Assembly (NCBI RefSeq): GCF_000497125.1
Contig: NC_090599.1
Location: forward strand, 186,001-250,000
Direction of reading: 5' to 3'
Source: Spironucleus salmonicida
Lineage: Eukaryota
Length of the DNA: 64,000 bases
Under the pieces are notes generated by a model. That model ran no database searches. It saw only the letters and a program-made list of their open reading frames with translations, and was not told where the DNA came from. The translations under genes were made by a program, and so were the position numbers. Shown piece after piece: positions 15,363-48,493 of this stretch (positions are counted from its first letter, which is position 1; each line of letters begins with the position of its first letter).

Positions 15363-16163
15363 ATGCAGAAAATAGAATCTATAACAGTATTTACAGAAGA
15401 AGCATATGTTTTATATCATTACTAACTATATTCGTAAACATTTGATACATTAGAAATGTTGCATTTAATTAGACTTTCGCATGCATTAATTAATTCATTG
15501 AAAGATGATTACTGCAAAACTATTTTAAATAACTTATCAATATAAGTCTATAAGTAAAATTTACTTTATATTTTACTATTATCACCAGATTACCTACCAG
15601 ATTAATAGAAAATTAACGTACATCTGATGCTTTCTGTATTTAATATGAAGTTCTAGAAGTATATTTTTTCTATTGCTAATGAGATCTAATATGCTATGGG
15701 TTAAATTGAATTAAACGGTATATAAGATAAATAAGATGAAAATAATATTGTTAAGGCATAAGCAGCGTACGATTTTATAGAGCCTTTTTGGGATCATTAT
15801 TAAGTATTTAATTCGTATAGAAAGTTAAGTTTTCTAATTGGTGACTTAAGAGTCTTTGAAGATTTGACGTAAGAAATTATTCTATTTTATTTTAACTAAG
15901 AGAAAGGTACATGGCGATAAATAAATGATTTTCCAATAAATAATTAAGCTTTATTTTCTGAAAGTAAAATTTATCAGGAAAATGCTGTTTTGTATACGTC
16001 TTATATAGACCAGAAATACCAAATTGCTTTTATGACTAGTTATGATCTACCAAATAATAAATAGGTTTATGATGTTCCTACGGCTCATTCTTAACTCTAT
16101 ACTACTGCAAAATAAATTACTTAACAGTATTTTCCCAAATAAGAAACGTTTAGAAGAGAGTGA
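15363..16163 (+). CDS. Hypothetical protein (266 aa), possibly longin-like N-terminus
   Basis: Code-6 ORF MQKIESITVFTEEAYVLYHY... ending GAG-TGA. The longin resemblance is by eye only. Confidence 0.6.
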
Positions 16164-16209
16164 TATATTATTATATAATATATCTAAACTATTTTATCTT
16201 TTCATTATA

Positions 16210-19200: not shown

Positions 19201-22200
19201 GACTTCAATAATAAAATTTCAGAACTGAAGGGCTTTGAACTGAAAAGACGAGGAGAATTACAGATTATTAAATCATTTTAACAACGAATATTTGTGAAGT
19301 TCCTTGCTGGGGTGGATCTATAGTCTTGTTATGATTCTGCAGCTGATATAGCAGATAAATTTATTGATATTCTGTACAATGAAGGGAAAGGATATGATAG
19401 CCGTTTATTGTAGTTTTTACTGTAAGAATAGACGACGATGAAACTTTCACTGGTAAATACAGCTAGTAATAAGAAGGGGACTGCAGTGACTTGTGCACGT
19501 AGGCTTAGCTAAGCAATTGACCCAATTTTTGCATAAGTTGACGGTCTATGTTGTGTTTTCGTGATTAGCAGGTATCCTGAGGACTCTCCAGTTTCCGAAA
19601 GGAGCATTCCCTTGCAGATTTTCTCGTGTACCCCTGAAAAACAGCTCAAATACTTGAAATAGTGGACGAAAAAAGAGACTACAAATATAGCTGAAATTCT
19701 AGACTGGCCGTATTATTGGGACAGATTTCAAAATTAATTGTTCAGAATAATTGTTGTACCAGCGGGCCTATAGGGACTTCCGCATTCTCCAATAAGGCGT
19801 ATTCCATACCCTGATTGGCTGAAAAAAGCAGTTTCTAGAAAAGATGTGGAGATAGAGACAATTATGAAATTTGTTAATAATAATTTAAAAAACGACGATT
19901 TCTCAGATAATGAAGATGATGATACTTAAGTAATAGTTACAGCAGAAGATATTTTGATGCAGTATAACATTAATATAGAAGAGGTATTTGACATAGATTT
20001 GTTGTAATAAATGAGTAATAAGAAAACATAAGGATTAGACAGAAATGGGGATTATGAATAATGGATATAAGTTTAAAAGTAAAAATGGAAAGTGCTTTTA
20101 GAATTTTAGTAACTTAATAATTCCATTTAATAGTAGAAGTTTTTACGACAAAATAATAAAAAAGCAAAAGGCTCTACAATTTTTAGCTAATTAGGAAATT
20201 GTAGAGAGAACAACTATATTGTTATACATATTGAAAATTAATAGATATTAGGTTTGATAAACGTCCTCCTTTTGGATATTTAAACTAATATGTTTGCTTA
20301 GGTTAAAGTGTAAGTACCTTAGTACTTTTATATTAATACCTAAGAGGATCTTTCATAGTAGAATCTAGCATTTAAGGGTAAAATTGAAAAAGTTAACAAG
20401 ATTTTGCCTCGCAAAACGTAGATTTTTAATTTATTTGAGGTTACTATGCTTCAACAAGATTATTTACAGTAAAAAGAGTTTATTTAGTAAGTTAAGAATT
20501 CGCCATTAGTAGAAAATATATATGAACTGCAAGTAGATCCAGCGTCTAGATTTATATTAAACCTAGGTTGTCACATTACATTAACATAACAATCGGCCCG
20601 AGATTTATAGTATAATAATGTATTGCAATTTAAAGATATTTAAATAAATAGAAATGTACAGTTTGATAAAAAGTAAGAAACTTATTTCTTACATAAATTA
20701 ACTGACAAGCCAAAAATTAGAATAGGTATCTTGGCTCATTTATCCACTGCATAGGGCGATATTGCCATATTTATAAAAAATGATTTGATTATTTTATTTT
20801 CTAGCTGTTCTAATGAGATTTTAGAAGATGATAAATTAAAAGAGTTAACTATAGATAGATTAAAATCAAAACTTCATACAGATAACATTCAAGAAAGTGT
20901 ATTATTTTAATATTTTAATATTCTTAACTCTGATTATACATTAATTAAAGTTGAGCGTAGTGAAGATTTTTTAGCAAGGATACAATTAATCATAAATATG
21001 GAAATTAAGTAATCAGGTATTATCATCTATTCGACTAATTAGCATTAGTCTTAATTTTTTAAATTGTTAAAGGAAAATAGTTTATTTATTAATTTTCCCA
21101 TTTTATCTAAAAATTAATCGATTTCTGATAATATTATTGAATTAGTATTATAATTCCAGAATATGGATAGCTACATGCATCTGTGTTAAGTGCCATTAGT
21201 AAATTTATTGGATTCAAAATAAATATATAAAAAATAGGTATCACAACTACTTATCGCCTGTGATTTCTTATATGGAAGAATATTAATGAATAATAATTGT
21301 ATTTTGTGGTGGAGTAAAAACTCATAACCTGATTTAGGTAAGGATTTAAACATATCGTTAAATGTATTACCCGATTATAGTTTTACATATGAATATTCAG
21401 GACATTATTAAGGATATACAGTTGTTTTTGATTTTAAATATATAGTCGCTGAAGTATTGTCAAATATATTTAATAATCATAACATTAAAAAAGTAGAAGG
21501 TGGATTTTAAGTCAAATAATTTTAAAAGTTTATAAATCAAATTAACAATTCATATATTGGTTCCGCTATTTACAGTTATCTAGAATAATATATTAAAGAA
21601 AAAGAAAGCTTCCTTTTTGATGATTTGCATTAAAAAATTATTATAGAGTAATTAGGTTTCTATATTTAACAAATTTATAATTAATGCTTTGTTTCGGATA
21701 TAATCCCAGTTTTTATAAGTCAAAAATAGTTAATATTATCTACTAATAAGATTTAAGAACATTTAACAACGAATTAATTGAACATTTTTATTTAAAATCT
21801 ATAATCATCTGGGTTATTGCGAATAGCTAAATTAGTATACAGAATTTGTTATAAGTAGCTTCTTTATATTGATTCAGATAATTTTTATGCATTGTCTATT
21901 ACCAATACTTTAAATAAACGGACTCACCTATCGTATTTACTGCCATTATCGCTAAATAAGTCGTTAGAATTGATATTAGGTTGTTTTCTAATCCATTGTT
22001 CTAATATAGAAGGAGTTTCTTTACTATAAGTAAAATCACTTGCATCGCTTCCTACATAATTTTTTAAGTGGTTTAGGTTAAAGTAATTAGATTTATATTC
22101 CTAGGACTAAAAATAACAATATGAAATAATGCCATTTTCATTGTTATCATCTATTACAACTATCCTTTAACTATCAATGGTTTAGCCAGATACGATATAT

Positions 22201-22632
22201 TAAGAGAAGTTACTCTAAACCTATATAAAAGCCTCAGCATAATCACTTTATTTATAGTCTTTGCGTGATTTTCTATCATTATCGTAGCCAATATAAGAAG
22301 ATGTCAAGGTTCTTATAGATTCAATGGATGCAATTACTTAATCATCTACATGCAGTTAAATAAATTCATTAGTAATATCTATTTATTGTAATTTGTGCAA
22401 TGATTTTTATCATATAAATCTAAGCAAATAAATGTCTGAGGAATGCTTAAAGTGTGATATCTGTGGGAATAACTATGATAACTTGGTAATAGAAGAAAAA
22501 CTTATTTCTTAATTTAAAGAATAAATGAACCTAGCTTAGTTTTAAATAATAGATGATTATATTAAAGTAGCAGAAATTAGAGGGTTTAAAATACTTAAAA
22601 GCTGTGCCTAACAATGGTAAGCATGGTAGTGA
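16210..22632 (+). CDS. POL2: DNA polymerase epsilon catalytic subunit
   Basis: Exo [53 protein letters not shown]; CysX CGTCDYN...[24 protein letters not shown]-terminal CxxC..CxxC. ~2140 aa. Confidence 0.96.
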
Positions 22633-25800: not shown

Positions 25801-27158
25801 TATTGAATATTAATAAAATAAAAGAAGATGAAAAGGTACGATTATTTGAAGAAATATAAGATGAAGAATTTTAGACATAACTCACTCAGTAAACGACTAT
25901 ACCACTCTCAGCCCGTCATTTAGATGTTCTTAAAGAAGAAACATAAGATTAAGTAATACTTACACCGAAATAAATAGTTATATTCTTCCATCCGTTATTA
26001 TAACTTTTTATGGAGGTTAATTAGCATCTGACTCGAATAAATTCATAAATTTTAGTAAACTCAGATTATATATTTATGATTTAATAAGTTTAAGAGATTA
26101 TTGACGCATACACAAATAATATTCCATTAGTTACTGTAATTACAATTGAAATTATATTAGATCGATTGGAAATGTGGAAAAATTTAGTTGATTTAACACT
26201 ATAAGATCAAAATTAAAAAAGTTCGGTGAAATAAGTAGAACAATAACATTTAGTAGACCCCTAAAAAACTATTTAGTTTATTGTAGACATCCTTCTGGTA
26301 TAGTTTTAGAATATGTTTTAGGAGATAGAATTAATTTATGACAAATCACCTGCATTTTTAAATACAAAAACTGGCTGGTAAGTTAATAATCCATACACAT
26401 TATTTTAATTATTTGAATAGAAATTAAAAATAATTAATTCTTCACCTTCCAGAAAATATGGTGTTTCATTAACAATTAATGAGTAGCCTATGCTATCTTC
26501 ATTAGATAATAGAGAAGAATTTAATATTCATCTTTATATAGGATTGGATACTGCAGAATGTACACCAATTGTTGGGTTACGACATAAAATTGATGAAAAA
26601 ACTCTTTTTATATAATAAAGCTCACGTGCTTTTAAATTATAAGACACATAAGAGTAAATTTTACAATTTGCATAAATAGCATAAATTCAGGATAATAAAG
26701 CAGATGGGCTTACTAATTTTTAGCCTGTATTTATGAATTTCCTGTTTTTGAATTATTCTTTAGCATCAGATTACATATAAATTAATCATTAGAAGTCTGA
26801 TCTATTTAAATACTCATATATTAATCTTTAAAGATAAGCTATTCTACCAAACTTTTTTGCAAATTGCCTTTTTGAACTAATACTAAATTCGTACCAAAAT
26901 AGTCGTCCATCTATAATTAGAGCTAGTCTATTTAATGCAGATGGGTCATTTTATTTAGTTGTTTCTGACAGTGGAAACGGTTTATCATAGGACTAAACAG
27001 ATAAAATATTTTCTAATAATACTGGATCTTTAGGTACTGGATTAGCATATTTGCGAATGCTTGTAGGTTTTTATAATGGTATGATTAATGTGTCATCAGA
27101 TGATTAGTCAGGAACTAGAGTTATTGTAAAAATACCCATGGTATAACAAAATGAATGA
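22803..27158 (+). CDS. Ser/Thr protein kinase (CAMKK-like) fused via an acidic linker to a C-terminal PDK/BCKDK-like GHKL (HATPase_c) domain
   Basis: N-terminus: GRGSYG, VAIK, HGDIKPAN, DFG, APE, DVWAYG. C-terminus: LFELILNS (N box), VSDSGNG (G1), GSLGTGLA (G2), GTRVIVKIP. Same frame at sampled points, ~1451 aa. Confidence 0.82.
24297..24885 (+). repeat. Four imperfect peptide repeats (KKPxxxSLASKxAxxPPP...DS[D/E]) in the kinase linker
   Basis: KKPVGSSLASKIANLPPP (~24300), KKPVAQSLASKLASMPPPP (~24441), KKPASTSLASSIANLPPP (~24609), KKPQSLASSMAAKLAAQPPP (~24801), each followed by an acidic DSD/DSE tract. Confidence 0.85.
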
Positions 27159-27171
27159 TGATTTGAAATTT

Positions 27172-27660
27172 TCACTCTTTATCAACCCCAAATTCAATAA
27201 ATTAGTCAAAAGCCTTAAGTTCATCTTCACTGATATCCCTAGCACCTTCAACACCTGAGCAAGTACTACTAAAACTGTTTGAGTTAGAAGAACTACGAAC
27301 AATTTTTCGTTTTCGAGGTGGTTTGTCTAGAGTCGCCCTTGATTCCACTATTGAAAACAGCAATGAGACTGCTTAGTCCTCTTTATTAGATTACGTTAGT
27401 TTAAATATTTAAATAACAGTTGATTCTATTTCTTCTTATGTCATATTTATTTATTAATTACAATAAAACTCTACAAACTTAAATAATATACACCTCCAAT
27501 CTTAATCATCTTATTGAGACCTACGTTTTTCGAAGTACCATCTTCCCTCTGTTTATTTAGGAGTGGTCTATAATTATTCAGCAATAACTTTATAATGAAA
27601 TCTTCCAACTCTAATAACGGCTAAATATAAGTCTAAAAGATCTATAGAATGGGAGGACAT
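27172..27660 (-). CDS. Small Myb-like DNA-binding protein (162 aa)
   Basis: DLLDLYLAVIRVGRFHYKVIAEQLQTTPKQTEGRWY resembles a Myb repeat; basic PPRKRK NLS-like motif; ends GAG-TGA. Confidence 0.65.
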
Positions 27661-28653
27661 TTAACAGAAAATATTCTAAGTAATTACTTATTATATTATA
27701 TTACTACTTTATTTTTTATTTTGAGATAATTCTTGCTAGTAGGATTTTTATTATATTATAAAACTAAGTTCCATAGTTAAAATTTGTAAAGACTTGAAAT
27801 TTATTTTTTGTTTAGCATAAAATATGTAATTTTCTGCAGTAATTATGCTAATTTATAACTAAAATAAACTATACTTGGTATTATAATGAACAATTACTGC
27901 AAATTATTTTAATTATATATAAAAAATATATATTAGTTAACGATAATTTAGGGTTCAGTTAAATATCAGCAAGATATTTCTAATTTGTGCACTCAACACT
28001 ACTTTCTCTAAAAATTTATACTGAAACTTAATAAGAAATTAATTCTTAAGCTAAAGTTTTTATTGTAACACATATTTCAATAATTATTTTAGTCTTTTAT
28101 TCAAGATTTGTTTTATAATTATACAATCTTTATATCTTAAATTATTTAACATAATTAGGATATTTTACCATCTTGTTTAAATAGATAAAAAATAACCAAA
28201 AGTGAAATGATGAAAAATAGCTAATTTTATTTTTCATTAAACCAGCTAACAAGCGTAAAAATAACTAATGATTTTTACCAATAGTTATTTAAAGCAAAAA
28301 TAAGTAAAAACCACGATTTATTAGCTAAAAGAAGACCATAAAAGGGATGCTCGAAAATAATATATGTGAACAGACATTAAAAAATTATATTTAAAGCAAA
28401 ATTATTTATTGTTAAAATACGAAAATGATCTAGAAGAGAAGCAGAATTGGGTAAGATATAAGACTATAGAGTTACGAAATAGAGTATAATAGGTATATAA
28501 GATTTAAGTTATTCTTTCATTCGGTGGAGATATATGTATAGTGTATAGTAATACTTTTAGAAATAAAGACTATTATGCAATAGTAATTTATATTACATTT
28601 TGTAATATAAATGAATTTATATATAGATTCTTAATAATATTATTTCTTTTCCG

Positions 28654-29934
28654 ATGACACTTTTCCCTGGCTTCTCAGATTAAATAAGTTTATCAGAACA
28701 AATAATAAGTGAATACTATGAACATCTTTAAAATTATATTGATTCCTATTTAACAATTGCTATTCATTTTTGCAATGAAATTTTCACTGAAACTGAAGAA
28801 ATATTTGATTAATCTTGGAAAACTGACGTGGATAATATTTTTAACGATGAATCCATATTCAGCTGTATAATTCACGATCTAAATCCTATTTTTCTATAAT
28901 CACCTTCTTTTAAACTTTTCATCGAACTATCAAAAACCCTAGCATTACCTAACCATAATCATATCACAGAAAACATACAAGTCAATAATATTCCTTCTTT
29001 AAGGTCTAACATACACATCAATAAAGCCTGTTAAGTTGTATAATTCACTGATTTTTTGGAAAAGCATTATGACCTAAAAACGTTTAAAATCATCGATTTT
29101 GGAGCGGGAAAAGGATACCTTTCGACTTTTTTAGCATTTGATCGCTAGTATATCATAATAGCTGCTGAAGCATCCTTTTTACATGCAAAAGCCTTATTTC
29201 AGCGAATTTCGAAACTATCCAAAAATTATCCAAACTAGGATCGTCTCAATATCGCAATTGGTCTGATATCTCCAGAAACAGGTGCATCGGATGTAGTAGC
29301 CGGTGCCTTTCCATGGCGAGACTTCGAGAAATAGCGAATTTCGACTAGCGGCCATGAACCACACTCGCCAATTTAGGGCGAATGCGCCGCTCAATTTCGA
29401 AAGGCCGAGGTTTAGCACGATTGTCTGATTATTGGCCTGCACACCTGCGGGGATCTGGCGCAAATCTGTTTGAACTTGGCAAGCAAGCGCGTCAAAATCG
29501 CAACGATTGGATGTTGCTATGGGCATATCACGTAGAAGTGTTTTCCAGCTACTGAATAAGGTGATCAGATTGTTTAGCATATCTCGAAAAATAGTAAAAA
29601 TAATGGTCGTGGAATGAAAATGTTTGATTATTTTGTTCCAAAGGTGCTGTTTAACTATGCAACCGGCGATTTCGGAATAGACCTAGATGGGTGCAAGCAA
29701 ATGCTTGAAAAATTTATTTTGCGCGCAAAAAGCGATAGGAAAGAGGAGGATTTGGCCAATTAGATTTGGAAGATGAAACTGCATATAATAATCAGATTAG
29801 TTTTTGGCAAGGTTTTCGAGAGTTTTATTATAGTAGACCGATTGGTGGCATTAAGAAAGAGGGGGGTCGAAGCTGGGATATTTGCTATAATAAATTAATT
29901 CAGTCCCCGTGGGTTTGGAATTTGTACGAAATGA
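28654..29934 (+). CDS. METTL25/RRNAD1-like SAM-dependent methyltransferase
   Basis: IIDFGAGKGYLS (motif I), IIGLHTCGDLA, IGCCYGH, FESFIIVDRL, terminal FSPR. Confidence 0.85.
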
Positions 29935-30033
29935 TATAGAATATTATTATATTTACATACTATACTAAATAACATTAATATAAGATTTTATAATTATATA
30001 TAATACTATAAATAAACTTTTCTAGAAATTACT

Positions 30034-30041
30034 TTCCGCAA
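30034..30041 (+). promoter_or_regulatory. Candidate start-proximal element TTCCGCAA (dynein gene)
   Basis: Same 8-mer lies within 0-3 nt of the ATG of three genes (5218-, 30045+, 55245-). Confidence 0.45.
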
Positions 30042-30044
30042 AAT

Positions 30045-33000
30045 ATGTCGTTCAACTTAGAAGAGATTGTTAAAGAAGAAGAGAAGGTTATTTGTAGAGC
30101 CTTGCGTGATTCTAATAATCCCAAGATTGTTAAAGAAGATATGGCTATTTTTACGGGTCTTATTGAAGATTTGTTCCCAGGTGTTCGTATTGACCGTTTG
30201 ATAGACCCAACATTTGAAAAAATGATTGCTGAATCATGCAAAGATCGTGGCCTCTAGCCTGAGTAGTCATTTATGATTAAAGTGGTACAGTTTGAAGAAT
30301 TGTTATAAATTAGACATTCAATCTTTATCCTAGGTTTTGCTGCAGTTGGTAAAACCTCAGTTTGGAAAGTATTAGGTGATACTTATAAGAAATAAGGTAA
30401 AAAATTTGTTCATCATGTTATTAATCCCAAAGCTGTTACTACAAAAGAATTGTATGGTTACATTCAGCCAGCAACAAGAGAGTGGAAGGATGGAATATTA
30501 TCTACTATTATGCGTTCAATGGCAGAGTTGCCTGATACGCCTCAGATGCCAAAATTCTTTGTTTTAGATGGAGATATTGATGCTCTTTGGATTGAGTCAA
30601 TGAACACAGTCATGGATGATAATAAAATTTTAACATTGGCTTCCAATGAGAGAATTCCATTACGTCCTTCTATGCGTATGATATTTGAAATTGGATCATT
30701 AAAGTATGCTTCTCCTGCAACAGTTTCTAGAGCTGGTATCATTTATGTTAATGAGTCAGACGTTGGCTGGCCTTTTTACTTTTAATCTTGGATTGAAAAA
30801 TTAGAAAGTTCATTAGAAAGGTCAACTATTACAGTATTTTAATAGAAGTATGTTTAACCTTGTTTAGAAGAAATTAAGAGAAACTATAAGACTATTGTTC
30901 CTATTAATGATATGACTACGGTTTAAACTATTACTAGATTAATGACCTCCTTGTTAGATGATTATAATAAGAGCCCAGCAGCTAAAGTCAATTTAGCTGC
31001 AAATATGGCTAATTAACAGGCATAACAGTCTGGACAATCTAACTAAATGCCAGATTATTCAAAAGATGTTATAGAATATTTCTTTATATTTGCTGTTGTT
31101 TGGTCTATTGGTGGTGTATTGTTCAAAGATTAACTTAACAATGATTTCAGAAAGAACTTTTCTAAATTTTGGAGACCAGCTTTCCCTAAGGGAATAGTTT
31201 TCCCAGCTCAAGGCGACATATTCGATTATTTTGTTGAAGTTAATGCCGAAACTGGTCAACCAGACTGGAAACTGTGGTCTAGTCAAGTTTCTCCTTATGA
31301 TCACGATGCTGAATAAGCTGTGAATAATATCCACGTAGAAACAATCGATTCGTATAGAATCCACTACATTATGGATAATTTGTTAAGAAATGGTCATCCT
31401 ATTTTGCTAGCAGGACCGGCTGGTTTAGGTAAATCTGTCTTGCTAAAATCTAAGTTGAAGAAGTTAAACGATTAACAGTGGTAATTTGCCACTATTAGTA
31501 TGAATTATTATACTACTTCTGCATAGATATAGATGGTATTAGAAACTTATATAGAAAAGAAGGTTGGTAATAAATTTGCTCCACTTGGAACAAGAAAGTT
31601 AATTTACATGATTGATGATTTAAATATGTCCAAAGTCGATGAATATGGTACTTAGTAACCCATAGCATTGTTAAGGCAACACATAGATTATGGATTTTGG
31701 TATGATAGAGATAAATTAGTTACCAAGGAAGTATCTAGTGTTTAGTTTGTTGCCTCTATGAATCCATACGCTGGTTCTTTTGAAATTGATCCACAATATT
31801 AATGGCATTATTCTCCATTTTCAGTAGATGTTCCCAGTGAAGAAAATTTACTGCAAATATACAGCTCAATCTTAAATGCTCATATGAACCGTGAAGGTGT
31901 TAATTTTAAGAAGGAGTTATAGTAATGTGCTACAGCAACTATTAAGACTTTACTTAAAATACATTCTAAAGTTTCTTAAGAATTCTTGCCAACTTCAATC
32001 AAATTCCACTATCAGTTCAATTTACGTGACTTAACTAATATTGTTGCTGGTATTATGAAGGTCAAACCTGACCATTTTAAAGAAGGTCCAGTAAACTTGG
32101 TATAACTCTTATTGCATGAATGCGAAAGAGTTTATTGCGATAGAATGTGTGAACAAGATGACAAGGAAAAGTACGAAAAGTTAGTTTAGGATTTAGTAAA
32201 GTAAGAACTTAGCACCGTGACTGCTATTGATACAACACGTCCCAAGTCTGCGGCATCTACATAGATTAATATCAATATGGATTAAGTATTTTCTCCTGAG
32301 GCAAATTACTTTTCTAATTTTGCATTAGGTATCGGCGAAGGTAGTTATGCCCCATTATAGAAGTATGATAGAATGAATTAATTGCTTAATGAAGCGTTAC
32401 TATCACATAATGAAAGCAATGCCGAAATGAATTTAGTATTGTTTAAGGATGCTATGCAACATGTTTGTCGAATCTCAAGAATTATCAAGACCTCTGATGC
32501 TTTATTGGTAGGTGTAGGTGGTTCTGGTAAATAATCATTGGCTAGATTAGCTGCTTTTATCAATGAATACGAGGTATTTTCGATTACTATTTCTTCTACC
32601 TATGGTGTTGCTGATTTTAAAGCTGATTTAAGAAAACTTTATCGTAAAGCTGGTGAAAAAGATATACCAACTATGTTTTTGTTCACTGATTAGCAAATTA
32701 CTAACGAAGAATTTTTAGTTTATATTAATGATTTGTTATCATCTGGTTTCATAGCTGGATTATGGCCTGCTGAAGAAGAGGAAGAAGTTATTAATAATAT
32801 GCGGAACAGAGTCAAGGATGCTGGCATTCCTGACACTAAGGAGAATGTTATGTAATTCTTCATTTAAAAAGTTAAGGAGAATTTGCATGTAGTATTAGGG
32901 TTCTCGCCAAACGGTGATGCATTTAGAGTTCGTGCTAGGAAATTCCCTTCTATTGTTAATTGCACAACTATTGACTGGTTTATGCCATGGCCATATGAAG

Positions 33001-36000
33001 CATTAGAGTCTGTTGCTTTCAACTTTATCAAAAATAGAGATAAGACCAAGGAAAAGAAATATGATGATGTTATAGTTGATTTATCTGATGAATAATGCTT
33101 AGCATTAGCTAAATTTATGGCAAAAGCAAATGAATTAGTAAATACATTATCTGAGAAATATAAGAGGTTAGAGAAGAGATATGCGTATACCACACCAAAA
33201 TCATTTTTAGAACTTATTTCTCTTTATCTTAGATAGTTGTATTCTAGAACTCAACAGATTTAGAATTCAATCAATCGTTTAGAAAATGGTAATGCTACTC
33301 TAATTAAAACTGAACAAGATGTTGGAGAATTAAAAACAAGACTTGAAGATTAGAAAGTAGAAGTTAAAATATAATAAGATGCTGTAGCTGCTATGATTGG
33401 TGGTATTACCGCAGAGAGAGAAAAAGTGGGTGCTAAAGCCGCAGATGCTGAAATTGAGAAGTCTAAAACAGCTTTAGTCGAAGCTGATGTTAACAAAGCT
33501 GCTAATGAAGCTAACAAGGAACTTGAGAAAGCCAAACCTATTTAGGAAGAAGCAGAAAGAGCCCTAAACACCCTTAATAAGGATAACTTGACAGAATTAA
33601 AATCTTTCGCTAACCCTTCCTCCGAAGTCGCTAGAGTTATGGAAGCAGTTATTATTATGCTCAACAAACCTGGAGTTGTTCCTCGTGATTTATCCTGGAA
33701 GGCTGCTAAGAGTTTAATGGCAAATGTTGATAAGTTTTTAAAACAATTGTAAGAGTTTGATAAGGAAAATATTAATAATGCTAACAAATAGGCTGTTCTT
33801 AAGTATACTAAAGATGAGAATTTCACAGGAGAATATATTAAAAGCAAGTCAGGTGCTGCTGCAGGTATTTGCGATTGGGTTAGAAATATTATCAAATTCC
33901 ATGATGTATTCCTATTTGTTGAACCGTTGAGATAGAATACAATGGAATTATAAGTATCACTTGATGGTGCTTAGAAACGTTTAAAGCAAGTAGAGACATA
34001 AGTTAATTTGCTGAATGAATCATTGGGTAAATTAGAAGCTGAATTTAAAGCTGCTGAAGATAAGCGTGATGCGGTTCTGAAAGATGCAGATGACATGGAG
34101 AAGAGATTAGAACTAGCTAATAGATTAGTTAATGGTCTTGCTTCTGAGAAAGTCCGTTGGAGATAGTCTGTAGAGAATCTTAAATAAAGAAACAACACAC
34201 TCTTGGGCGATGTTTTGATCATTGCAGCCTTCATCTCATATTCTGGTGCATTTTCTAGAAATTATCGTACCGAAATGATGGATGGATGGATGATTTTGAT
34301 AAAAGAACTTAATATTCCTATTTAAGAGGAGTTTGATCCTTTATCATTACTTACAGACCCTGCGGTAATTGCCTAATGGAATAATGACAAGTTACCAACA
34401 GATCGATTTTCTTTAGAAAATGCTTCGATATTCTCGAATTGTGACCGTTGGCCTTTAATTATTGATCCATAACTTTAAGGTATGGAATGGATTAAGACCA
34501 GAGAAGCCAAAAATAATTTGAAAGTTATTAGATTAAATCAAAAAGATTGGCTTAATGTTGTTAAAGATGCAGTTGAAAATGGTTATCCAGTACTGGTAGA
34601 AAATATCGCTGAAACTATCGATGCCGTTTTAAACCCAATCCTAGGCCGTGAAATTGTAAATAAAGGCAAGGCTAATTAAGCTATCAGGATTGGTGACAAG
34701 GAGATTCCATATCATAACGATTTTAAAATCTTCTTCTAAACCAAATATCCTAATCCTCATTATTCTCCTGAAATTTAGGCCTAAACCACTCTAATCAACT
34801 TTACTGTCACAGAAGAAGGTCTTGAAGACTAATTACTCGCTGATGTCGTTCTAGAAGAAAGACCAGATCTGGAGGAACTCAAGACTAAACTCATGAGAGA
34901 GCAAAATGAATATGCTATCACTCTTTAGTAGCTCGAAAGCGACCTTTTAGAAAGACTTTCAAAAGCAGGAGATAACATTATTGAAGATATAGGCCTCATC
35001 ACAAATCTTGAGAAGACAAAAGCTACGTCCACAGAAATCGCAATTAAAGTGCAAGAAGCGAAGGAAACAGAAGTTAATATCAATAAAGCTCGTGAAGAGT
35101 ATAGACCAGTAGCTTCAAGATCATCAATGTTATATTTCCTCTTAAATTCTTTAGCTGTAATTGATCATTTTTATTAATTTTCACTTTCAGCCTTCAAAGT
35201 AGTATTCTTCAGATCAATTCGCGAATCTGAAAAATCAGAAGAAGTACAATAACGTGTTTTGATTCTTCTAGACTCTATTACTTATGGAATTTACTGTTAT
35301 ACTACAAGAGGTCTTTTCGAACGTCATAAATTAATTTTCAACTCATAGCTTTGTTTCAATATTTTAAGAAAAGCTAATTAATTACCTAATGCAGAATTCT
35401 AATTTTTATTGAGAGGAACATAGGCTGTTGGTCGTGATAATACTCTAGGAGAGTTCATTTCTAACTCGTCATGGGGATGTATTTTAGCTTTAGCATAAAA
35501 TATCCCTGATGTTTTTGCAAAATTACCTGATGATATTGAAGGTTCCGCTAAGCGTTGGAAAGAATGGGTCCAACACGAAACTCCTGAAAAAGAAAAATTA
35601 CCATAGGATTGGAAATCTAAGACGTAGCTATAATAATTATGTATTATTAGGGCGTTGCGTCCTGATAGATTATTGACCTCAATGTCACAGTTCATTGCAA
35701 ATTCTATTGAATCAAAATATATTGAGGCAGTACCTTTCAATTTCCCAGAAACTTTCAAAACATCATCTAAAACAGAACCAATATTCTTTGTATTATCACC
35801 AGGTGTGGATCCTGTCAAGGACGTTGAACTTTTGGGTAAGAAGCTGGGCTTTTCATTCGATAATGGTCTGATTAAGTCAGTCTCTTTAGGTTAAGGATAA
35901 GAAAAGAATGCAGAGAGATTTGTTGAAGAGATGTCCCAAAAAGGCGGATGGGTCTTATTATAAAATATCCATTTAATGAAAAACTGGTAAGTTAGATTAG

Positions 36001-37553
36001 AGAAGTTGATGGACTAGATTTGCTAGCCAACAGCTCACGATAATTTCAGATGCATGATTTCTGCTGAACCGAATCCAAATCCTACTATAGCTGCAGTTTT
36101 GCCTGGTATCGTTTAAATGTGTATTAAGGTTACAAATGAACCCCCTACTGGTATTAAAGCCAATATGAATAGAGCTATCGCACTATTTAATAATGATGTA
36201 TTCGAATCTTGTTCGAAAGCCAATGAATTCAAATCTATATTATTCTCATTGACGTTCTTCCATGCTATTTTGTTAGAAAGACGTAAATTTGGTTCAATTG
36301 GATGGAATACACCTTATAATTTCACGAATGGTGATTTGACCATTTGTAAAGATGTTCTATTTAATTACCTAGAGGCAAATGTCAAAGTTCCGTGGGATGA
36401 CCTTAAGTATATGTTTACTGATATCTTTTATGGTGGGCATATTGGAGATAATTTAGATCGCAGATTTATCAAGGCATATGCCAACGAGATTTTCTCAGAC
36501 GCTCTTTTCGAGGATGGCAAGGCTCTTGCTCCTGATTTCTTCGCACCTCCTCCTATGACTTTTGATGGATATAAGTAATATTTTAATGAAACGTTACCAC
36601 CTGATAATCCAAAAATGTTTGGTTTACATCCTAATGCTGAAATCACTTATTTAACTTCTTAATCTAACACTTTATTTGCTATGCTTATGTAAATGCAGCC
36701 TTCAGATGCAGCCGCTGTTGGTGAGGGTGGTGAGGAAAAAGATTTCAAGGATAGAATCGAGGAATTAATCTAATTAATCCCAGAATAATATAATGTTGGT
36801 GATTTGATGGAGCGTAATCCAGATGCTTTGCCATACAATTCAGTTTGTATTTAAGAATGTGCTCGTATGAATGCGTTAACTAATCAAATGAAATTGACCC
36901 TTACAGACGTAAAATTAGGTCTTAATGGTGAACTGACAATTTCTGAGTAGATGGAAAAGATTATTGATGCTGTTCGTTTAGAAATAGTACCAACTATTTG
37001 GAATAAGGTTTCTTATCCTTCATTGAAAGGGCTAGCCCCATGGCTTAAAGATTTAGAACATAGAGCAAAATAGTTATCTGATTGGTCTGCGGAATTAGGT
37101 TTACCTAAATGCGTATGGCTTTCGGGATTATTTAACCCTTAATCTTTCTTACGTTCTGTAATGTAGACTACTGCACGTGTGAATTAGTGGCCTTTAGATA
37201 TGATGGACTTAAATGTAGAAATTACAAAGAAAGAATTATCTGATATTACTGCTGCTCCTAGAGAAGGTGCATATATCACTGGTCTATTCATGGAAGGAGC
37301 CCGTTGGGATAAAAAATCCTCATCCATTAGAGATGCTATTCTTAAAGATCTATATCCTTAATTGCCTCCTATTTACTTAAAAGCTGTCACGAACGACAAA
37401 ATTGAAATTAAAGACACTTATGAATGCCCAACCTATATGACAAAACAAAGAAACGGCTTAACGTACGTTTGGAGCTTTAATGTTAAGACTAGGGAGCCTT
37501 CATCAAAATGGATTTTGGCTGGTGTTGCTATGCTTTTGGCTAACGATGTTTGA
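30045..37553 (+). CDS. Outer-arm dynein beta-type heavy chain, C-terminal part only (AAA1 lid, AAA2-4, stalk/MTBD, AAA5-6, C-terminus; ~2502 aa)
   Basis: [31 protein letters not shown]2 [41 protein letters not shown]3 [11 protein letters not shown]4 GVGGSGKQSL. Terminal [26 protein letters not shown] is typical of the DNAH9/11/17 class. Confidence 0.95.
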
Positions 37554-37749
37554 CATGATTCAAATTTTATTATTATATTTTTATAATATAGAAGTATTAG
37601 ATTTATCTATCTAATTTCTTATATTTTGAGATTCTTCCAATTCAATTTAGATAATATTTTATCCTATTGTTAAATTTATAAGAATAAACTATTTTATATT
37701 ATTTTTCAATTATAAGATATTATAATCAGTTATTAATATTTTATTGAAA

Positions 37750-39297
<1,548 letters not shown>

Positions 39298-39348
39298 TTT
39301 TCCTATAGATTATTTATATACTAATCCTAATTATTTTCATTCCTTAAT

Positions 39349-42300
39349 ATGGAGGACTTACAAGTTAACTTATTTTAGCTTTTTTAAGCATATCCTCAGT
39401 ATAATGAGGATCATATACTTGAACATACTATTGTAATTATTTAGAATTAAAACGAAGATATTGCATGCTCTGAATTAATTGATTTGTTAGGGTTCGATAT
39501 TCTAGACAATGGTTTGCTAGAGTAATTAATAATTTACCGATAATAGTTCATATAATCTTCTAAAGCATAAGTTTAAAAACCAGTTTAGTAAACGCCTGAA
39601 GTGTTGCCTCTTATCTAAAATCAACCACATACTACCTAAAAGTAGTTATACCGAACTGGAAAATATTTTGACTTTGCGTTCATTGATTCTAAGAGTAAGA
39701 TAAGTTTGTAAGTTGAAAGGAAGCCAATAACACTATTACCAAAAATATTTCAGTAGGTATTTGATTTTGAATTTTTTAATGACTTGCAATCAGCACTTTT
39801 TACTACGGCTTATACGAAAACAGAAAATATTTTAGTATCTGCACCAACATCATCCGGTAAAACAAATGTTGCAGTACTGTGCATAATGTAGATGCTTAGT
39901 TAAATAATGAGTCAATATAATATTGATTTGAATAATTGCGTTGCTGAAGATATTAAAAGAGTATTAAAAGAAACATAGGGACTTTGTGTTTATTTAACAC
40001 CTTTGAAAGCTTTAGCAAGCGAAATTACTTAAAAATTTAAAGGGTAGTTGAATAAATTAGGATTTTAAGTTTTAGAATGTACTGGAGATGAAAATCCACC
40101 AGTAGAGCTTATCAATTAGGCAAATATTTTAATTTTAACCCCAGAAAAATTTGATGTCATTACAAGAAAATAAGTAAATAGTAGTATATTTTCAAGATAA
40201 AAACTTCTAATTATAGACGAAATTCACTTGATTGGTGTATCTGGTCGTGGAAATGTGCTTGAAAGTATTGTATGTAGAACAAAGCTAGCTATTGAATAAT
40301 TATAATCACCACTGAGATTTGTAGGAATTTCAGCTACTATACCTAATTACAAAGATATAGCATAATTTTTAGAATGTGAATTATCAGGTACATATGTGTT
40401 TGATGATTCTTATAGGCCAGTACCAATGACATAATTTGTTTTTGGAATAAAGGAAAAGCCATCAAGTAATGTTCAATCAGATTTAGATATTTAACATTTT
40501 GCTAAAACTAATTCACACTTAAAATAAATTTTAGAATAAGTAGGGACAGTAGAGGAGTTTTATTAAGATGAAATGGCACTGAAATAAAAATTACTCAATC
40601 TAGATAAAAAAGAAGATAATAAAAAGAAGAAATAATAACAATAATTATCAGTAAAATATGATGATATGTTAGATGAGCTCTGTACTTAAATCTCTGTTTA
40701 AAATAATGAATAACTACAATCTACTATGATTTTTGTTCATTCAAGGAGAAAGGCAGTTGAATTAGCAAAAATTATAGCATCAAAAATGCCTTAGTGCGAT
40801 TTTAATAAAAATATTATTAAATAAGCTTAAGGATGTGAAAAAGGAGATTTATCTTTCTGTATGTCACGTGGTGTTGGATTTCATCATTCTTAAATTGATA
40901 AATCTCATAAACGATTAGTAGAAGATTCTTATAGATAAGGAGAATTAACGATAGTAGTATGCACAGCTACATTAGCATGGGGTGTCAATTTACCTGCCTA
41001 GACGGTTGTTATCAGAGGAACTGATATATTTTCAGAATTTGGTCAAAAGGATTTGGATATTTTAGATGTGAAGTAAATATTTGGTCGGGCAGGACGACCT
41101 CAATTTACTGGTGAAGATGGTAAAGGTAGAGGTATTATATTAACAAAATTTGAAAAAATACCATAATATATGAGATGGTTAGCTAATGACACTCCTATTG
41201 GGTCATAAGTTGGATCTAGGCTACCTGATATTCTTAATGCTGAAATAGTATTGGGTAATATTAGCACAGTAGGTTAGGCATATTAATTTATTCGAAAATC
41301 CTTTTATGCTATCAAATAAATAAATTATCAAGATATGATACTAGTATCGTTGTAATAATTATATACAAATTAGTTATTATTTTCGAGCTAAAAAATTGTG
41401 AATGATCCAAATTAAGTATTAATTCCTACAGAATTAGGTAAAATTTGCTCATATTATTATGTTTATTTTGATACGTTAACACATTTCATTAAAGAGATTC
41501 AAAAACTTCCAATAGGATCTTCAGTCGGGTATGATGAATTATTCCACCTTCTAAGTAGTATTCCAGAATTTTAGTCTTTAAAACCGAGAAGTGAAGAAAG
41601 AGAGGAACTAATGCAAATTTCAGGTCAGTTCTTAGATTAAGCAACAGAATAAGTATCAAAATTATAATCTAAAGGCATAAATAATAAGTAAATCAATTAA
41701 TATCTAAAATAAGGGTTAGGAAAAGCTAAGTACTCAATGGTACCAATATTAGCACAAGATGATTAACCAGAGTTCAAAGTTAATTGCCTTATTCAAGCTT
41801 TCATTAGCTAATATATACCTAAAAATTAATCACTTATATCCGATTAAAGACTTGTTATTTAATCTTTGCCTAGAGTAGCTTAAGCATTCTTAGAGTCTCT
41901 ATTTAGTATGAAGCGCTAAAATGAAGCTCTAAAGATGAATGATATTGTAAACTCATTATTATATTAGTCATGGTATTTTACATCATCCCCGTTTTTCCCT
42001 TTGATTTTTAATGTAGTTGGATCTGTTTCTCCAGGGTCAAAAGGGTTCTAAAGTAGCATGAACATTATTTAAAAACGTGGCGTTAACGATATAATATAAC
42101 TTTCAACTATTTAAAACTTTCATAAATTATATCCAGTTACAAATTTTGTTGATTACTCTATGCTGGAGTAACTTACCTATAATGACATAGTAGATAGGCT
42201 AGGTGATTACTAAGCCAATACTATTATTAAAGCAATAAAAATGATACCATAAGTATAGCTTGATGCTGTTGTAATACCAATTTCGAAAAAATTATTACGG

Positions 42301-45300
42301 GTTCAAGTAAATGCGATACCAAAAATATTATGGAACAAAAACTGTCATGGGTATTCATAATCAATCGTAATATTAATTTCTAGAGCTGATAATGGATAAA
42401 TATTACATCGGCATGAAGTAGTTTTAAATTAATATACGATTTAATAACCAATTAATATAGTCACACTAATAAAAATTAGTTAATGGAATAAGATTACCGT
42501 TCAAGGTACTAATGTAAAGAATACTCTCAGCTTAGGAAATATATCGACTGATATTGAATCTGATGAGTTTCCTGTCTTAAAGGTGGTAGCTTTTCCCAAA
42601 AATTGGACTGGATCTACTGCGGTTGTTTAGGAACAGATAATTTAGATAGAAAATATATATATTCAAGAGCATCAAAATATTGAGTATTAATAACTTAATG
42701 ATCCAAATATCGTATTTCAGTCAAAATTTTCATATTTTACCCCATTGCCTAAAATTTAACCTATTTCAACATTATCACTTCATTGGCCCGAGGCTTAAAA
42801 TTTATTTAGTTTTAAATTTTTTAATCCAATTTAATCCGTAATGTTCCACACTTTATTTTATTAAAGAGAAAATGTTTATGTGGGTGCGCCAACTTCTTCA
42901 GGGAAAACGGTAGCCGCTGAGTTAGCGATTTTATAAGTTCTTAAAAATTCGCCTGGGTAGAAATGTGTATATATTGCACCTATTAAGGCATTAGTAAGAG
43001 AAAAATATTTAGATTGGAAAACAAGATTTTCAGTTATTGGTGCTAATGTAGTTGAAATAACTGGAGACTATGTACCAGAAGCTATGCAGTTGTTAAGCAG
43101 CCATATTATTGTTACAACTCCTGAAAAGTGGGATGCGATGAGTAGATCATGGAAAAGTAAATAATTTTTACAATTGATAGGACTTATTATTATAGACGAA
43201 GTTCATTTAATCGGGACTAGTAGAGGTTATGTTATAGAAAGTGTGGTAGCTCGATATTAGCTAGTATGTAAAGAATTAAATAAATAGATACGGCTTGTTG
43301 GTCTATCTACACCAAGTTAAAATGTTAAAGACATTGCTTAATGGCTTAAGGTACCTTATTAAAATATATTTAATTTTGATAATGCTGCTAGACCTGTAAA
43401 ATTAGATATTCATATTCAAGGTTTTATCGGCGACAAATATTGTGAACGAATGGAATTAATGAATAGACCAGTGTATACTTCTATAAAAAAATATTCACCA
43501 AATTTACCAGTTCTTATTTTTGTTTAGTCTAGAAAATAAACTAGAAAGACGGCATATGCCCTTCTTAATTTATCTTTTGCTGATAATTAACCGCCGGAAT
43601 GTTTCTTTAAAATACCAAATGATAAGTTATCCGAAAATATATAAGATCCAGATGCTGCACATTGCATTAAATTTGGCGTTGGTATTCATCATTCGGGAAT
43701 GATTTCTTCAGATAGAGAAATAATTGAATAATTATATCTGACATAATAGATTACAATATTAGTTTGTACTGCAACTTTAGCGGCAGGTATTAATATGCCC
43801 GTCTATATGACAATTTTAAAGGGTTGTGAGTATTTTGATGGAAATATAAAAGCATATGTGGATTTTGATATCGTAGATGTTCAATAAATGTGTGGTAGAG
43901 CAGGTAGACCATAATATATACAATATAAGATTAAATCTTAAATTAAATAGCTTTTAGGCTAAGAAACTGTTAATTAATTAGAAGATTAAAAAGTATTTGA
44001 TTTTATGTATACGTTTAATAAGCAATTAATTAAAGATAACATTAAAACTAATATACCAGATTTAGATTCAATTTTAGATTATATCGAATAATTAAATATC
44101 GAATAACCTTAGTCTGTATCAATTATAATGTGCAGATAATCAGCTAAAGAAACCTACAAATAATTTTTTAATGAACCTTTCCCATTTGAGTCATCATTAC
44201 TTAATTAAGCATTAGGAAATGCGCTAGCATCCGCTATGCTTAAGGTTAAAGATATTCAAATTTCGTATTTTCCAGATTGTGTTAACGCTGAAATTTCAAT
44301 ATAAGGTACTTCACGACTTCAACTCAGAAATTGGCTATAACATACCTTTTTCTTCATTCGTGCTAGAAGGAATCCACTACTTTATGGAATTGATCTTAAA
44401 GATATTTTAGACGACATAGAAACAGTAGATTTATCATTATTCACTGTAGAATTTCATTCATATTCAAATGGACGCAATATTTTAGAACAGCCAAAGGCTT
44501 CGTTAGTTGATTTTTTCACAGTTCTCCGTATATATGCAAAACTTGATTCTACTCTAGATCTTTTAATTAGTATAAAAGCTATTTCATCTGACGCCTAGAC
44601 GAATTATTTTGAAGAAGTTTTCTACCAAACTGATATAGGAAAAATTGCATCAACTTATTATATTTCATACCATACTTTGTGGAAGTACGTGCATTTCGGT
44701 CAGATTACCACTCCTTATTTAGCTATAAGTCAAATCTCATAGGCGCACGAATTCGCGCAAATTCCCGTTCGATGTGATGAGGAAAAGTAAATGTCAAGTC
44801 TTGCTATCCCAGAACAGATAATTGCTGGCTCCGGAAACCAAAAAGCTTATTTTGTACTCACCAAATAGTATGAAAACGACATGAAAATGCCAACACCGGA
44901 ATTTAATCTGGACCTCAGAACTGTTATGGCATCCACACATAGAATTACAGCAGCCCTAATAGAAATAAAATTACGTTAAAACGATTTTGCTTCATCTATA
45001 ATTTTGTGCAAAATTGCACGAAATTTGAAAGGCATCGAAGAGTAACATTGCGTTTTTTGGCTTTTTGCGCGCGTTCGTGACGTTGGAAAGGAATGGAAAC
45101 TTGAATTTCGATTAACAGTGAAAGGAAATTGTAGAGGAATGGTTTATTTAGGTGCAAAAGGCGAATTTGGAAGAGGGAACAAAGAAGTGGTAATCGGATG
45201 CAAGGTAAGTGGTGAGAAGGAGGTGTTAGTTTTTGTTGGATCAGATGTTATAAGCCTTAATTAGACTATACCAGTTCTTGTTAGCTCAGTTGGTAGAATA

Positions 45301-45324
45301 TGGGAGAACGTTTAAGTTTAGTGA
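39349..45324 (+). CDS. ASCC3: ASCC3/Slh1-type tandem Ski2-like helicase with Sec63 domains
   Basis: Two cassettes (APTSSGKT/DEIH and APTSSGKT/DEVH). The second cassette, YIAPIKALVRE...RPVKLDIHIQGF...YCERMELMNRP, fits ASCC3 better than Brr2. Confidence 0.85.
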
Positions 45325-45475
45325 GGGTTAAGCTTAATTCTTTCTTTAGCAGCTTTTTATAGTATATCCTTTTAATAATTTATATAAAGCAATATTTCTT
45401 TTTGTGATATTTTATTTTAATTAATATTTAATTATTATATCAAAATAAATACAACACCCCATTTCTAAAAATTTT

Positions 45476-48400
45476 ATGTCCGAACTATCTCTTTAGGCTA
45501 GAATTGAGGCAAGGTTAGCGAAGCATAAATAATAGTAGAGTTCTTTAAAACCTTCAGAACTTATAGTTTAGCAGTCAATGACTGAGTAAAGTAGTACAGG
45601 CAAGAATCTGTTTTCTAATACTTCGATGAATGTCATGTCTAACACTTTACATTAAACATAGGCAGAAAATACAATATAATAAAGAGAGCTTACATAAACT
45701 AGATCTAAAATGATGTCTTTAGAAAGATAAACTTAAAACATAGAATAAGAATTAAAGAATAAGGATTAAGCACTTAGGAAAACGCTAGCAGAAGCAACTG
45801 GTGAAAGAGTCGCACTTGTAGAAGCACTTACTGAAGCTAGAGCTTTATCTGATAATCTTAAGATTGACCTTACTAGAAAAGATGATTTGATTTAAAAGTT
45901 AGAATAAAGATTATCTAAACAGTCATTAGATTTTGAAGAGCTACAAGTTAAGCTAACTTAAATTACCACAAATTACTCATCATAATAACATGATATAAGA
46001 TTTTTAAAAGAGCAAATAAATATGCTTGAGACAAAATCATCAATTTAGGAAAAAGAAAACGAAAAACTTACATCTGAATGCGATGAATATAGAGATTAGG
46101 CTTTGGAAAATAAAGTATTAAAGAATAAAGTGGGTTAAATTGATCATGAATATCAATCAATAACGAAAAAGTATAAAAATGAATGTGAAAATAATTTATC
46201 TATTAGAGCTGAGTTAGTATAATTGAAGTAAGAATATTCTGAAGTACTTAATAAATTTGCAAACTATACTGATGAATATGAAAAGTTTAAAAGAATTTCC
46301 GCAAAATATGATGAATTGTCAACTGATCATGATAAACTAGTGAAAAAGCATAGATAGTTAACTGATGATACTTCTGAAGTTACATATAAGTGCGAGAAAG
46401 ATAGTAGTGCTTTATCACAAGAGAGATAGGCTGCTTAAATGTTAGGAACCGTTATGAAATAAATGTGTTCCATGTAAGAAGGTGATATTGATGTGAAATT
46501 TTCATAAGTAGAAGATACCGTATGTTATATGCAAATATAACCTATTTTATTGAAGTTAAAATAAATTATTGATTAGAATAAATTATTTAGAGAAGATAAT
46601 AGCAGCAATACTAATTAATTATCAGTCCTCAAGAGAGATAATCAAAAATTGTAAAGTATATAAAATGAATTTATGATTAAGACTGAAACATTAACGAAAT
46701 CAAATGATCGACTAAATGCTAATTATGAGGAATTAAATAAAGATTTATAATCTGCTAAAGTTGAGTTATAAAATAAGGAAAATTAATATAATAAATTAGT
46801 TATGGAGTGCTAATTAGCGATCTAAACTTTCGGATAAAGAAATTCTAACCCAGAAGAAATATCAAAAGTAGCCCAAAATACAAACTCTATTATTGTAAGA
46901 TTATAAAAAGAGGTTGAAGTACTAAACTAAGAAATCGATGAATTGGCATTGAAGTATAATGGTTTAGAATAAAATAATTAGGGAATGAAGAATTAAAACT
47001 AATAATTATTATAGGAGTTGGAAATCAGTAAAAAGAAATATAACTCATATAGAGAAGAAAGTGGTAAGAAAGACTAAGATCTTGGGTCATAACAATCAGT
47101 TATAACTAATTTAGCCTAATTTATTGCTCTTTGCTTAAGATAAATTAATTAATTAGATAAAAAATTAGTTTATAATACCTAAATCAACCAAATATCTAAT
47201 ATTTCACTCAATAATTATATATAATAATACAAGTAGCTCCGTGAACTAGTCAATTTATAAGAAGATATTAAAGTCAAGCCTTCCAAAGCAGATTCAGCAA
47301 GGAAAAAATTAAGAAAAATGTTTATGGTTTAACTTTTCATTAACAAGCTTAAAATTCACACTCAAATAACATAGCAAACCAATCTTTTGGAGAGAAAGTC
47401 AATAGAAAGTGTAGCATAAAAAAGTATATAGTTTGGCTCAATAATATCTTCTTTAACATCCTCATTTGTATATTAATCAGGGGATATTGAAGGACATGGT
47501 ATAGCATTTTTATCTAATGATGATAGAAACAACGTCCTTCATAAAGTTCTATCTAGATGCTTCTAAGATGCTGTTGTTTTCCGGTTTGGAACTGCAGATA
47601 TTTTAAACCTTCAATACGGCAAATTTAATCAGTCTTATAAACTTGTAAATAGTGCATTTTAAGCCAAAGATTCTTTAATTAACGAACTCGCATTGCAGAA
47701 TTCCGATGTTTTGAATTAGCATGAATTGATAGTATCTGAAAATGATTAATATAGAAATTAAGTTTAAGAAATGAGATAATAATTTTTAGCAGAATAATAG
47801 CGCTTTTTGCAGTTACAAAATAATATAAGTTAAAATTACGTTATTATTTAAGATTTCGATGAATTGTAATCTCAAAATAAAATGCAAATTATTCAAATAT
47901 AAAACCTAGAATAGAAAATAACTGATATTATGAGTTAGAATTCGTCTATGAATGTTGAGATTTCATCGTATTAGAACGAAATATCCAGACTAAATACAGC
48001 ATTACAATCATCTGACTAATTAGTGAAGACGATTAATACTAAATTTGAAGAGCAAATGAGAGCAGCGGTTAATATGAGAGAGCTTGTCTCTACATATGAA
48101 AAATAATTGAAATAAAAGGATTTAGATGTAAATGAGAAAGTTATGGACTTGTAGCGTCTACATTAACAAGCTTAGTAGTTATCAATGGATGAATAGAATT
48201 TATTAAGGGAAATTGATGATTTAAGAAAGCAATTAAGAGATAGAGACCAGAAAATGTAAGAGATATAGTATGCCTTAGATAAAGAATCTAGATTAAGAAT
48301 ATTAGCTGAAAACTCATAATAGCAAAAATTCACATAGTAAACCTATCAAAGACCTCCGATGCCTGTTTCAACACGTATGGAAGCTAGTGAAGCTAGTGAT

Positions 48401-48493
48401 AGTTATCCTTAACGCGAATTTAAATCTGCTGTAAACAAGGGTGAAATATAAGATTTGCTCAAATAACTTAACCAAAGTCTAGGAGATGAGTGA
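45476..48493 (+). CDS. Long coiled-coil protein (~1005 aa)
   Basis: Continuous code-6 ORF rich in E/Q/K/L heptads; ends GAG-TGA. Confidence 0.8.

Follow-up and report, generated by a model that had tools for sequence, protein, structure and literature searches.

Split outer-arm dynein heavy chains of diplomonads have been described in print between 2011 and 2016. In Giardia, the beta heavy chain is reported to be made as two polypeptides, each translated on its own, that come together in the outer-arm complex (Roy et al. 2012, cited in Kollmar 2016, PMC5100056), with the C-terminal part cut into three genes that are joined by two trans-spliced introns. For Spironucleus salmonicida, the inventory of Kollmar 2016 (Mol Biol Evol 33:3249; PMC5100056) gives the three trans-spliced Giardia parts as united in one single-exon gene, and the N-terminal part as a separate, duplicated and independently translated gene, either copy of which is used with the C-terminal part. 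Here, we analyzed a stretch of 64,000 nucleotides of S. salmonicida DNA (contig NC_090599.1, positions 186,001 to 250,000 of the forward strand; “the window”, to which all coordinates refer). The gene at 30045-37553 on its + strand is very probably the C-terminal gene of this naturally split outer-arm dynein beta heavy chain (DHC4 class, DNAH9/11/17-like), with TAA and TAG read as glutamine.

The gene is alike in every respect tested to the S. salmonicida DHC4 of Kollmar 2016 (PMC5100056), as far as it is described there: both are single-exon C-terminal genes that use an alternative genetic code and carry promoter-like motifs, and we could demonstrate no difference between them. A preliminary description of the window, made from the sequence alone, had described the Giardia beta chain as fragmented, partly trans-spliced and made as two polypeptides, and had inferred that the ring is assembled here from two separately encoded proteins; both statements are found in Kollmar 2016 (PMC5100056). 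With the split already published and the protein publicly annotated, the window brings nothing that is new in kind. Literature searches for studies of the split at the level of proteins or structures gave nothing relevant.

Rings built from two polypeptides are also described for the cytoplasmic dynein of Basidiomycota (Ustilago maydis Dyn1/Dyn2, Straube 2001; Wallemia sebi DHC1; Kollmar 2016, PMC5100056). The cut in W. sebi is likewise reported within AAA1, while that of U. maydis differs in lying in AAA4, before the stalk. These fungal splits, which we liken to the present one by description only, affect the cytoplasmic chain DHC1 and not an axonemal outer-arm chain, and are given as independent events.

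An intact reading frame for the C-terminal part of a beta heavy chain

The composition of the window (29% GC, no N) and its reading frames are those of a compact, AT-rich eukaryote that uses TAA and TAG as glutamine: when translated with NCBI table 11, the longest open reading frame (ORF) within 27000-40000 is only 153 residues long, while under table 6 the window is tiled by long ORFs. Under table 6, 30045-37553 forms one intact ORF, in which 92 in-frame TAA or TAG codons are decoded as glutamine. This uninterrupted ORF holds the remainder of the AAA1 lid (its last helices), AAA2-AAA6, the stalk and the C-terminal domain, laid out as follows.

30045..37553, + strand: coding sequence of the putative C-terminal polypeptide of the outer-arm dynein beta heavy chain (2,502 codons plus TGA, table 6)
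30045..30356, + strand: acidic new N-terminus and rest of the AAA1 small (lid) domain (residues 10-104, matching positions 233-327 of the 327 in Pfam AAA_6)
30333-30356, + strand: AAA2 Walker A motif GFAAVGKT (residues 97-104), into which the AAA1-lid stretch runs
31299..31829, + strand: AAA3 (Pfam AAA_7, residues 419-595), with Walker A motif GPAGLGKS at residue 457
32427..33230, + strand: AAA4 (Pfam AAA_8, residues 795-1062), with GVGGSGKQS
33273..34286, + strand: microtubule-binding stalk (Pfam MT, residues 1077-1414)
34374..35039, + strand: AAA5 (Pfam AAA_9, residues 1444-1665)
35769..36638, + strand: AAA6 (Pfam Dynein_heavy, residues 1909-2030, and AAA_lid_11, residues 2062-2198)
36657..37538, + strand: dynein heavy chain C-terminal domain (Pfam Dynein_C, residues 2205-2498)

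Pfam models follow one another in the order AAA_6 (partial), Dynein_AAA_lid, AAA_7, AAA_lid_1, AAA_8, MT, AAA_9, Dynein_heavy, AAA_lid_11 and Dynein_C, and those for AAA2-AAA6, the stalk and the C-terminal domain are matched with E-values of 1e-21 to 4e-88. The Pfam scan of the 2,502-residue protein yielded no DHC_N1, DHC_N2 or AAA1 P-loop. The gene therefore encodes a C-terminal subunit, with AAA2-AAA6, a coiled-coil stalk with its microtubule-binding domain and the C-terminal domain, and not a whole chain in which tail, linker and AAA1 P-loop are on the same polypeptide as the motor.

By ranking of scores against solved structures, we assign the gene to the outer-arm beta class (DNAH9/11/17, Chlamydomonas beta; DHC4 of Kollmar). 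The closest relatives in the PDB are DNAH9 (3.9e-113), DNAH17 (9.9e-112) and the Chlamydomonas outer-arm dynein (OAD) beta chain (7e-104), followed by the Chlamydomonas alpha (2e-86) and gamma (2e-55) chains and by inner-arm chains (1e-67 or weaker). Among the database matches listed, those with names are DNAH9/11/17 or “dynein beta chain, ciliary”, and residues 1931-4350 of the amphioxus ciliary beta chain (4,351 residues) are 47% identical to the ORF over 2,497 columns.

The preliminary description is borne out by these results on several points: it had called the gene an outer-arm beta heavy chain that starts inside the AAA1 lid, lacks the tail, linker and AAA1 P-loop, and continues for some 2,500 intact codons with conserved motifs. 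Its judgment that this does not look like a pseudogene agrees with the uninterrupted ORF, with the full motor content and with the 60% identity to an equally short gene of Hexamita inflata.

Other data also speak for the integrity of the gene model. The exact protein, with identical start and length, is present in NCBI, UniRef and EukProt. Contigs from all four sequencing runs that we compared match the dynein ORF collinearly, without differences, gaps or joints; one of them, for example, covers 30056-37553 with 7,498 letters, 0 differences and 0 gaps. On the dynein ORF the contigs start at 30050, 30056, 30088 and 30059, and the stretches 29933-30049, 27651-28287 and 37554-37794 have no contig cover in the four runs. 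The sole loose contig ends consist of Illumina adapter letters, at 27175 and 30546. The four runs come from one study. As these are contigs, and as their RNA origin is only guessed, they do not bear on transcript start, expression or trans-splicing, and we did not count them there. Judged from its sequence, the dynein ORF does not resemble a decaying fragment.

The 90% cluster of the protein is represented by a 77-residue ENA fragment (the P0001 cluster), and because of this the full-length protein is invisible in a near-length homology search. Masking by short cluster representatives could hide other diplomonad dyneins in the same way.

A conserved break in the AAA1 lid

To compare the breakpoint across relatives, we aligned 13 sequences: seven long-form chains, including that of the fornicate Aduncisulcus (P0008), and six short forms, namely the window protein, P0005 from Hexamita inflata, P0127 from Giardia muris, P0128 from a Giardia-like Logan cluster, P0129, a Hexamita-like ENA fragment, and P0175 from Kipferlia bialata. 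All six short forms start with methionine within 0-9 residues of one alignment column, and all seven long-form beta chains, Aduncisulcus included, are continuous across that column. A follow-up search gave five matches, four of which start at the break; P0393 (81% identity with the window protein) and P0395 were new, and the fifth match, fragment P0394, starts 32 residues past the break. This brings the short forms with a methionine at the break to eight: the window protein, those of Hexamita inflata, Giardia muris and Kipferlia bialata, and four further fragments (the Giardia-like Logan cluster and three from ENA). Because eight short forms share this methionine start, we consider the break to be a shared, constrained feature and not a local accident of annotation or assembly. 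A comparison with Giardia and other diplomonads had been proposed with the preliminary description, and it thus finds the same start in both Giardia muris and Hexamita inflata. On one point the alignment corrects that description, in which the aligned segment E..VLMRALRD followed directly on HYDWGLR: about 20 residues lie between the two in the long forms.

The short forms begin about 14 residues after DWGLRA. The break falls within a segment that is Gly/Pro/Asp-rich and loop-like in the unsplit chains and is swapped for the acidic stretch LEEI.KEEE.V in all split forms, whose new N-terminus is strictly conserved and acidic, with the pattern [NQE]LE[ED]I.[KR].EE.V. When a library of representatives was searched with residues 1-260, P0127 was the one split-type representative among the best 150 matches.

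Several other candidates were rejected as split forms. P0170 and P0248 (both starting VAGSL..) and P0321 (starting VLRVAG..) are canonical fragments without a methionine; P0325 and P0372 have a methionine start upstream of the break; and P0285, P0329 and P0301 carry sequence upstream of it, P0301 changing from junk to dynein at RGDP. The VAGSL start common to P0170 and P0248 coincides with the cut of the diplomonads and may, on thin evidence, mark an old exon boundary of other eukaryotes at this place.

In Hexamita inflata, the protein named “Outer-arm_dynein beta” (P0005, 2,536 residues) aligns with the window protein end to end, with 60% identity over 2,542 columns. The two are alike in being short forms, in their start position and in their single ORF; they differ in that the Hexamita protein has an N-terminus four residues longer and a 22-residue insertion after AAA2. 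The Giardia pieces belong to the same protein class and have the same AAA1-lid breakpoint (P0127 starts MSGLNLEEIFREEEKV and P0128 starts MSSFNLEEIFRQEEKV), and are 56% identical to the window protein over 1,361 (P0127) and 1,356 (P0128) columns. Unlike the window ORF, however, P0127 breaks off in the stalk, at a point that faces window residue 1335, where the window ORF runs on to its stop codon; a Giardia-type interruption of the C-terminal part by half-introns is not found here. The earlier inference of a contiguous C-terminal gene without split introns thus holds. Since a C-terminal part in a single ORF coexists with the AAA1 cut, the trans-spliced fragmentation in Giardia is separate from that cut. 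P0128 (1,375 residues) aligns as far as window residue 1334 and continues with about 34 non-dynein residues; a called ORF that extends into the 5' half of a split intron would have such a tail.

Proposed assembly of the motor from two polypeptides

If the window gene is the C-terminal half of a split chain, the tail, linker, AAA1 ATP-binding core and first lid helix (to about HYDWGLRA) would be encoded by a separate gene elsewhere, as stated in Kollmar 2016 (PMC5100056), and the two parts would be separately translated and combined in the outer-arm complex, as reported by Roy et al. 2012 (via Kollmar 2016). Considering general dynein architecture, the two chains would then come together non-covalently as one motor. 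The orphan lid helices with which the window protein begins would pack on the lid helix and AAA1 core of the N-terminal half; AAA2 would give its face to the AAA1 ATP site, contact of AAA6 with AAA1 would complete the ring, and the N-terminal half would dock its linker across it, such that the AAA1/AAA2 and AAA6/AAA1 interfaces and the docked linker keep the halves joined. A role as docking element is possible for the conserved acidic N-terminus. A principal ATPase module made from two polypeptides would be a striking natural case for both motor mechanics and the evolution of gene fission.

An AlphaFold model of residues 1-420, from a single job with a 15-row alignment, gave predicted local distance difference test (pLDDT) values below 50 for residues 1-44 and 46-49 and mostly above 80 for the rest. 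Low confidence in the first two helices, with residues 50-420 predicted confidently, fits lid helices that lack their partner. Two points weigh against the assignment to a split chain. The shallow alignment could explain the low pLDDT of residues 1-49 just as well, and the N-terminal dynein gene does not lie within the window, where none of the 14 other long ORFs has a dynein domain according to Pfam.

Gene start and alternative explanations

The region upstream of the dynein ORF contains the following features.

28654..29934, + strand: methyltransferase gene of 426 residues, ending in TGA and unrelated to dynein (Pfam Methyltransf_32, E 5e-14)
29935..30044, + strand: intergenic spacer of 110 nucleotides, 14% GC
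29986..30015, + strand: AT-rich, TATA-like stretch TTTTATAATTATATATAATACTATAAATAA, 30-59 nucleotides before the ATG
30034..30044, + strand: C-rich element TTCCGCAA (about 4-11 nucleotides upstream), then an A-run and T, directly before the ATG

A TTATTATAT-type stretch also precedes other gene starts in the window, as inspected by eye, and the layout of TATA-like stretch, C-rich TTCCGCAA-like zone and A-run is common to the dynein gene and the other window genes inspected. TTCCGCAA occurs five times in the window against 0.98 expected, a count reached in none of 100 shuffles; three of the five copies immediately precede the ATG of a long ORF (5218-, 30045+ and 55245-), and the other two lie within ORFs. 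Xu 2014 (PMC3916229) describes for S. salmonicida promoters a TATA-box zone at -60 to -20, an 11-nucleotide C-rich motif about 10 base pairs before the start codon and a run of A preceding the ATG, and we infer that the TATA-like stretch and the TTCCGCAA zone of the window correspond to these elements. The dynein piece hence appears to be a stand-alone gene, with a promoter-like upstream layout of its own and a conserved methionine start. In the table 6 frame, the ORF stays open upstream of 30045 to 29766 (TTG), with a further ATG at 29931. We rejected these extensions as coding, as they overlap the methyltransferase end and the spacer and read as low-complexity sequence unlike dynein (..INFSRNYFPQN). 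The preliminary description had this region right: it had seen only a 110-nucleotide AT-rich spacer and an unrelated methyltransferase gene upstream, an element at the ATG that other genes share, and no ACTAAC branch point.

Three alternative explanations were weighed. The one that survives best, though it is very unlikely, is that the ORF serves as 3' exon in a trans-spliced messenger RNA: an upstream dynein exon, transcribed elsewhere, would be joined to it at an acceptor in the spacer, such as TTTTCTAG at 30018-30025, so that a full-length chain results. The Giardia gamma chain is made by trans-splicing of this type. The spacer does offer a pyrimidine run followed by AG, 20 nucleotides before the ATG, the frame is open upstream under table 6, and Giardia is reported to trans-splice dynein pieces (Kollmar 2016, PMC5100056; Roy 2017). 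However, neither CTRAC, ACTAAC nor GTATGT occurs on the + strand in 29600-30200, the upstream in-frame translation is unlike dynein, and eight short forms from several genera have a methionine here, followed by the conserved new N-terminus. The same junction in Giardia is reported as unspliced, with the two parts separately translated (Kollmar 2016, citing Roy 2012, PMC5100056), and two transcriptome screens of S. salmonicida are described as finding no such introns: no trans-spliced intron in the RNA-seq data of Roy 2017, and no obvious split intron according to the methods of Xu 2014 (PMC3916229).

Still less probable is a truncated relic, or a partial and redundant duplicate, at this locus beside a complete beta gene elsewhere that does the work. 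Partial-gene dynein duplications are indeed reported to occur in S. salmonicida (Kollmar 2016, PMC5100056), but the gene has 2,502 codons without TGA and every motor domain well above the Pfam cut-offs. The identity of 60% over the full length to the equally short Hexamita gene, and of 56% to the Giardia pieces, indicates long-term constraint on the short form. In the inventory of Kollmar 2016 (PMC5100056), moreover, the C-terminal part is listed as a single-exon gene that serves either N-terminal copy, and, as a weaker point, no long diplomonad beta chain is among the 120 matches listed.

That a mis-join at about 29.95-30.04 kb severed the true 5' half from this gene is the least probable of the three: although no contig of the four runs bridges 29933-30049, the same break and methionine start recur in independent assemblies of other genera, the spacer shows the succession of TATA-like stretch, C-rich element and A-run that is typical where genes of the window start, the methyltransferase gene closes with a proper TGA at 29934, and the window is free of N.

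Age of the split

With the window gene taken as the C-terminal half of a split chain, the fornicate relatives bear on when the cut arose. The 263-residue gene model P0175 of Kipferlia bialata, a free-living, intron-rich fornicate, has the same break and the same acidic motif (..MSFTAAELEDIKKKEEEV), whereas Aduncisulcus (P0008) is continuous at the break and keeps the unsplit SLKRAEPEMPEEN version. P0175 may point to a fission older than the diplomonads; alternatively, the gene model may be truncated. We tentatively raise the possibility, which we hold to be somewhat doubtful, that the AAA1-lid cut is older than the diplomonads and that the acidic N-terminus serves specifically as a docking helix through which the two chains are joined again; if true, this would amount to a natural experiment on a non-covalent lid of dynein's main ATPase. 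The word “dynein” occurs 0 times in the Kipferlia genome paper (PMC5874029), and a literature search on Kipferlia dynein likewise gave nothing relevant. What the comparison seems to add to the published accounts, on evidence that is still thin, is the Kipferlia start (with Aduncisulcus unsplit), the conserved acidic N-terminus and the VAGSL starts beside the cut.

Other features of the window

Two further copies of TTCCGCAA, at 5219-5226 and 55247-55254 (both on the - strand), abut the ATGs of two large ORFs without Pfam matches, and the element is possibly a regulatory element shared by a set of genes. In addition, a 14-mer of the dynein start region, TTCCGCAAAATATG, recurs at 46297-46310 (+ strand) within a coiled-coil ORF (45245-48493), where it encodes ISAKYDE in frame; this copy is probably a coincidence. 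The two large ORFs and the other neighboring genes are as follows.

1577-5218, - strand: large ORF without Pfam match (1,213 residues), TTCCGCAA before its ATG
6500-11014: protein with a CFA20 domain (1,504 residues)
16042-22632: DNA polymerase epsilon catalytic subunit
37750-39297: AAA ATPase with AAA_lid_3
39349-45324: helicase with DEAD, Sec63 and SNRNP200_wHTH domains, which we take to be Brr2-like
48595-55245, - strand: large ORF without Pfam match (2,216 residues), TTCCGCAA before its ATG

For several of the ORFs called under table 6, the first ATG precedes the probable true start, as with 16210 for DNA polymerase epsilon and 45476 for the coiled-coil gene. Finally, 27175-27650 is covered by contigs of all four runs (27242-27609 in one of them) at a depth of 48-67, with Illumina adapter letters adjoining 27175 in three runs, and it matches a small minus-strand ORF just after the end of a kinase gene (within 27172-27774, with the internal methionine MSSHSIDLL..).

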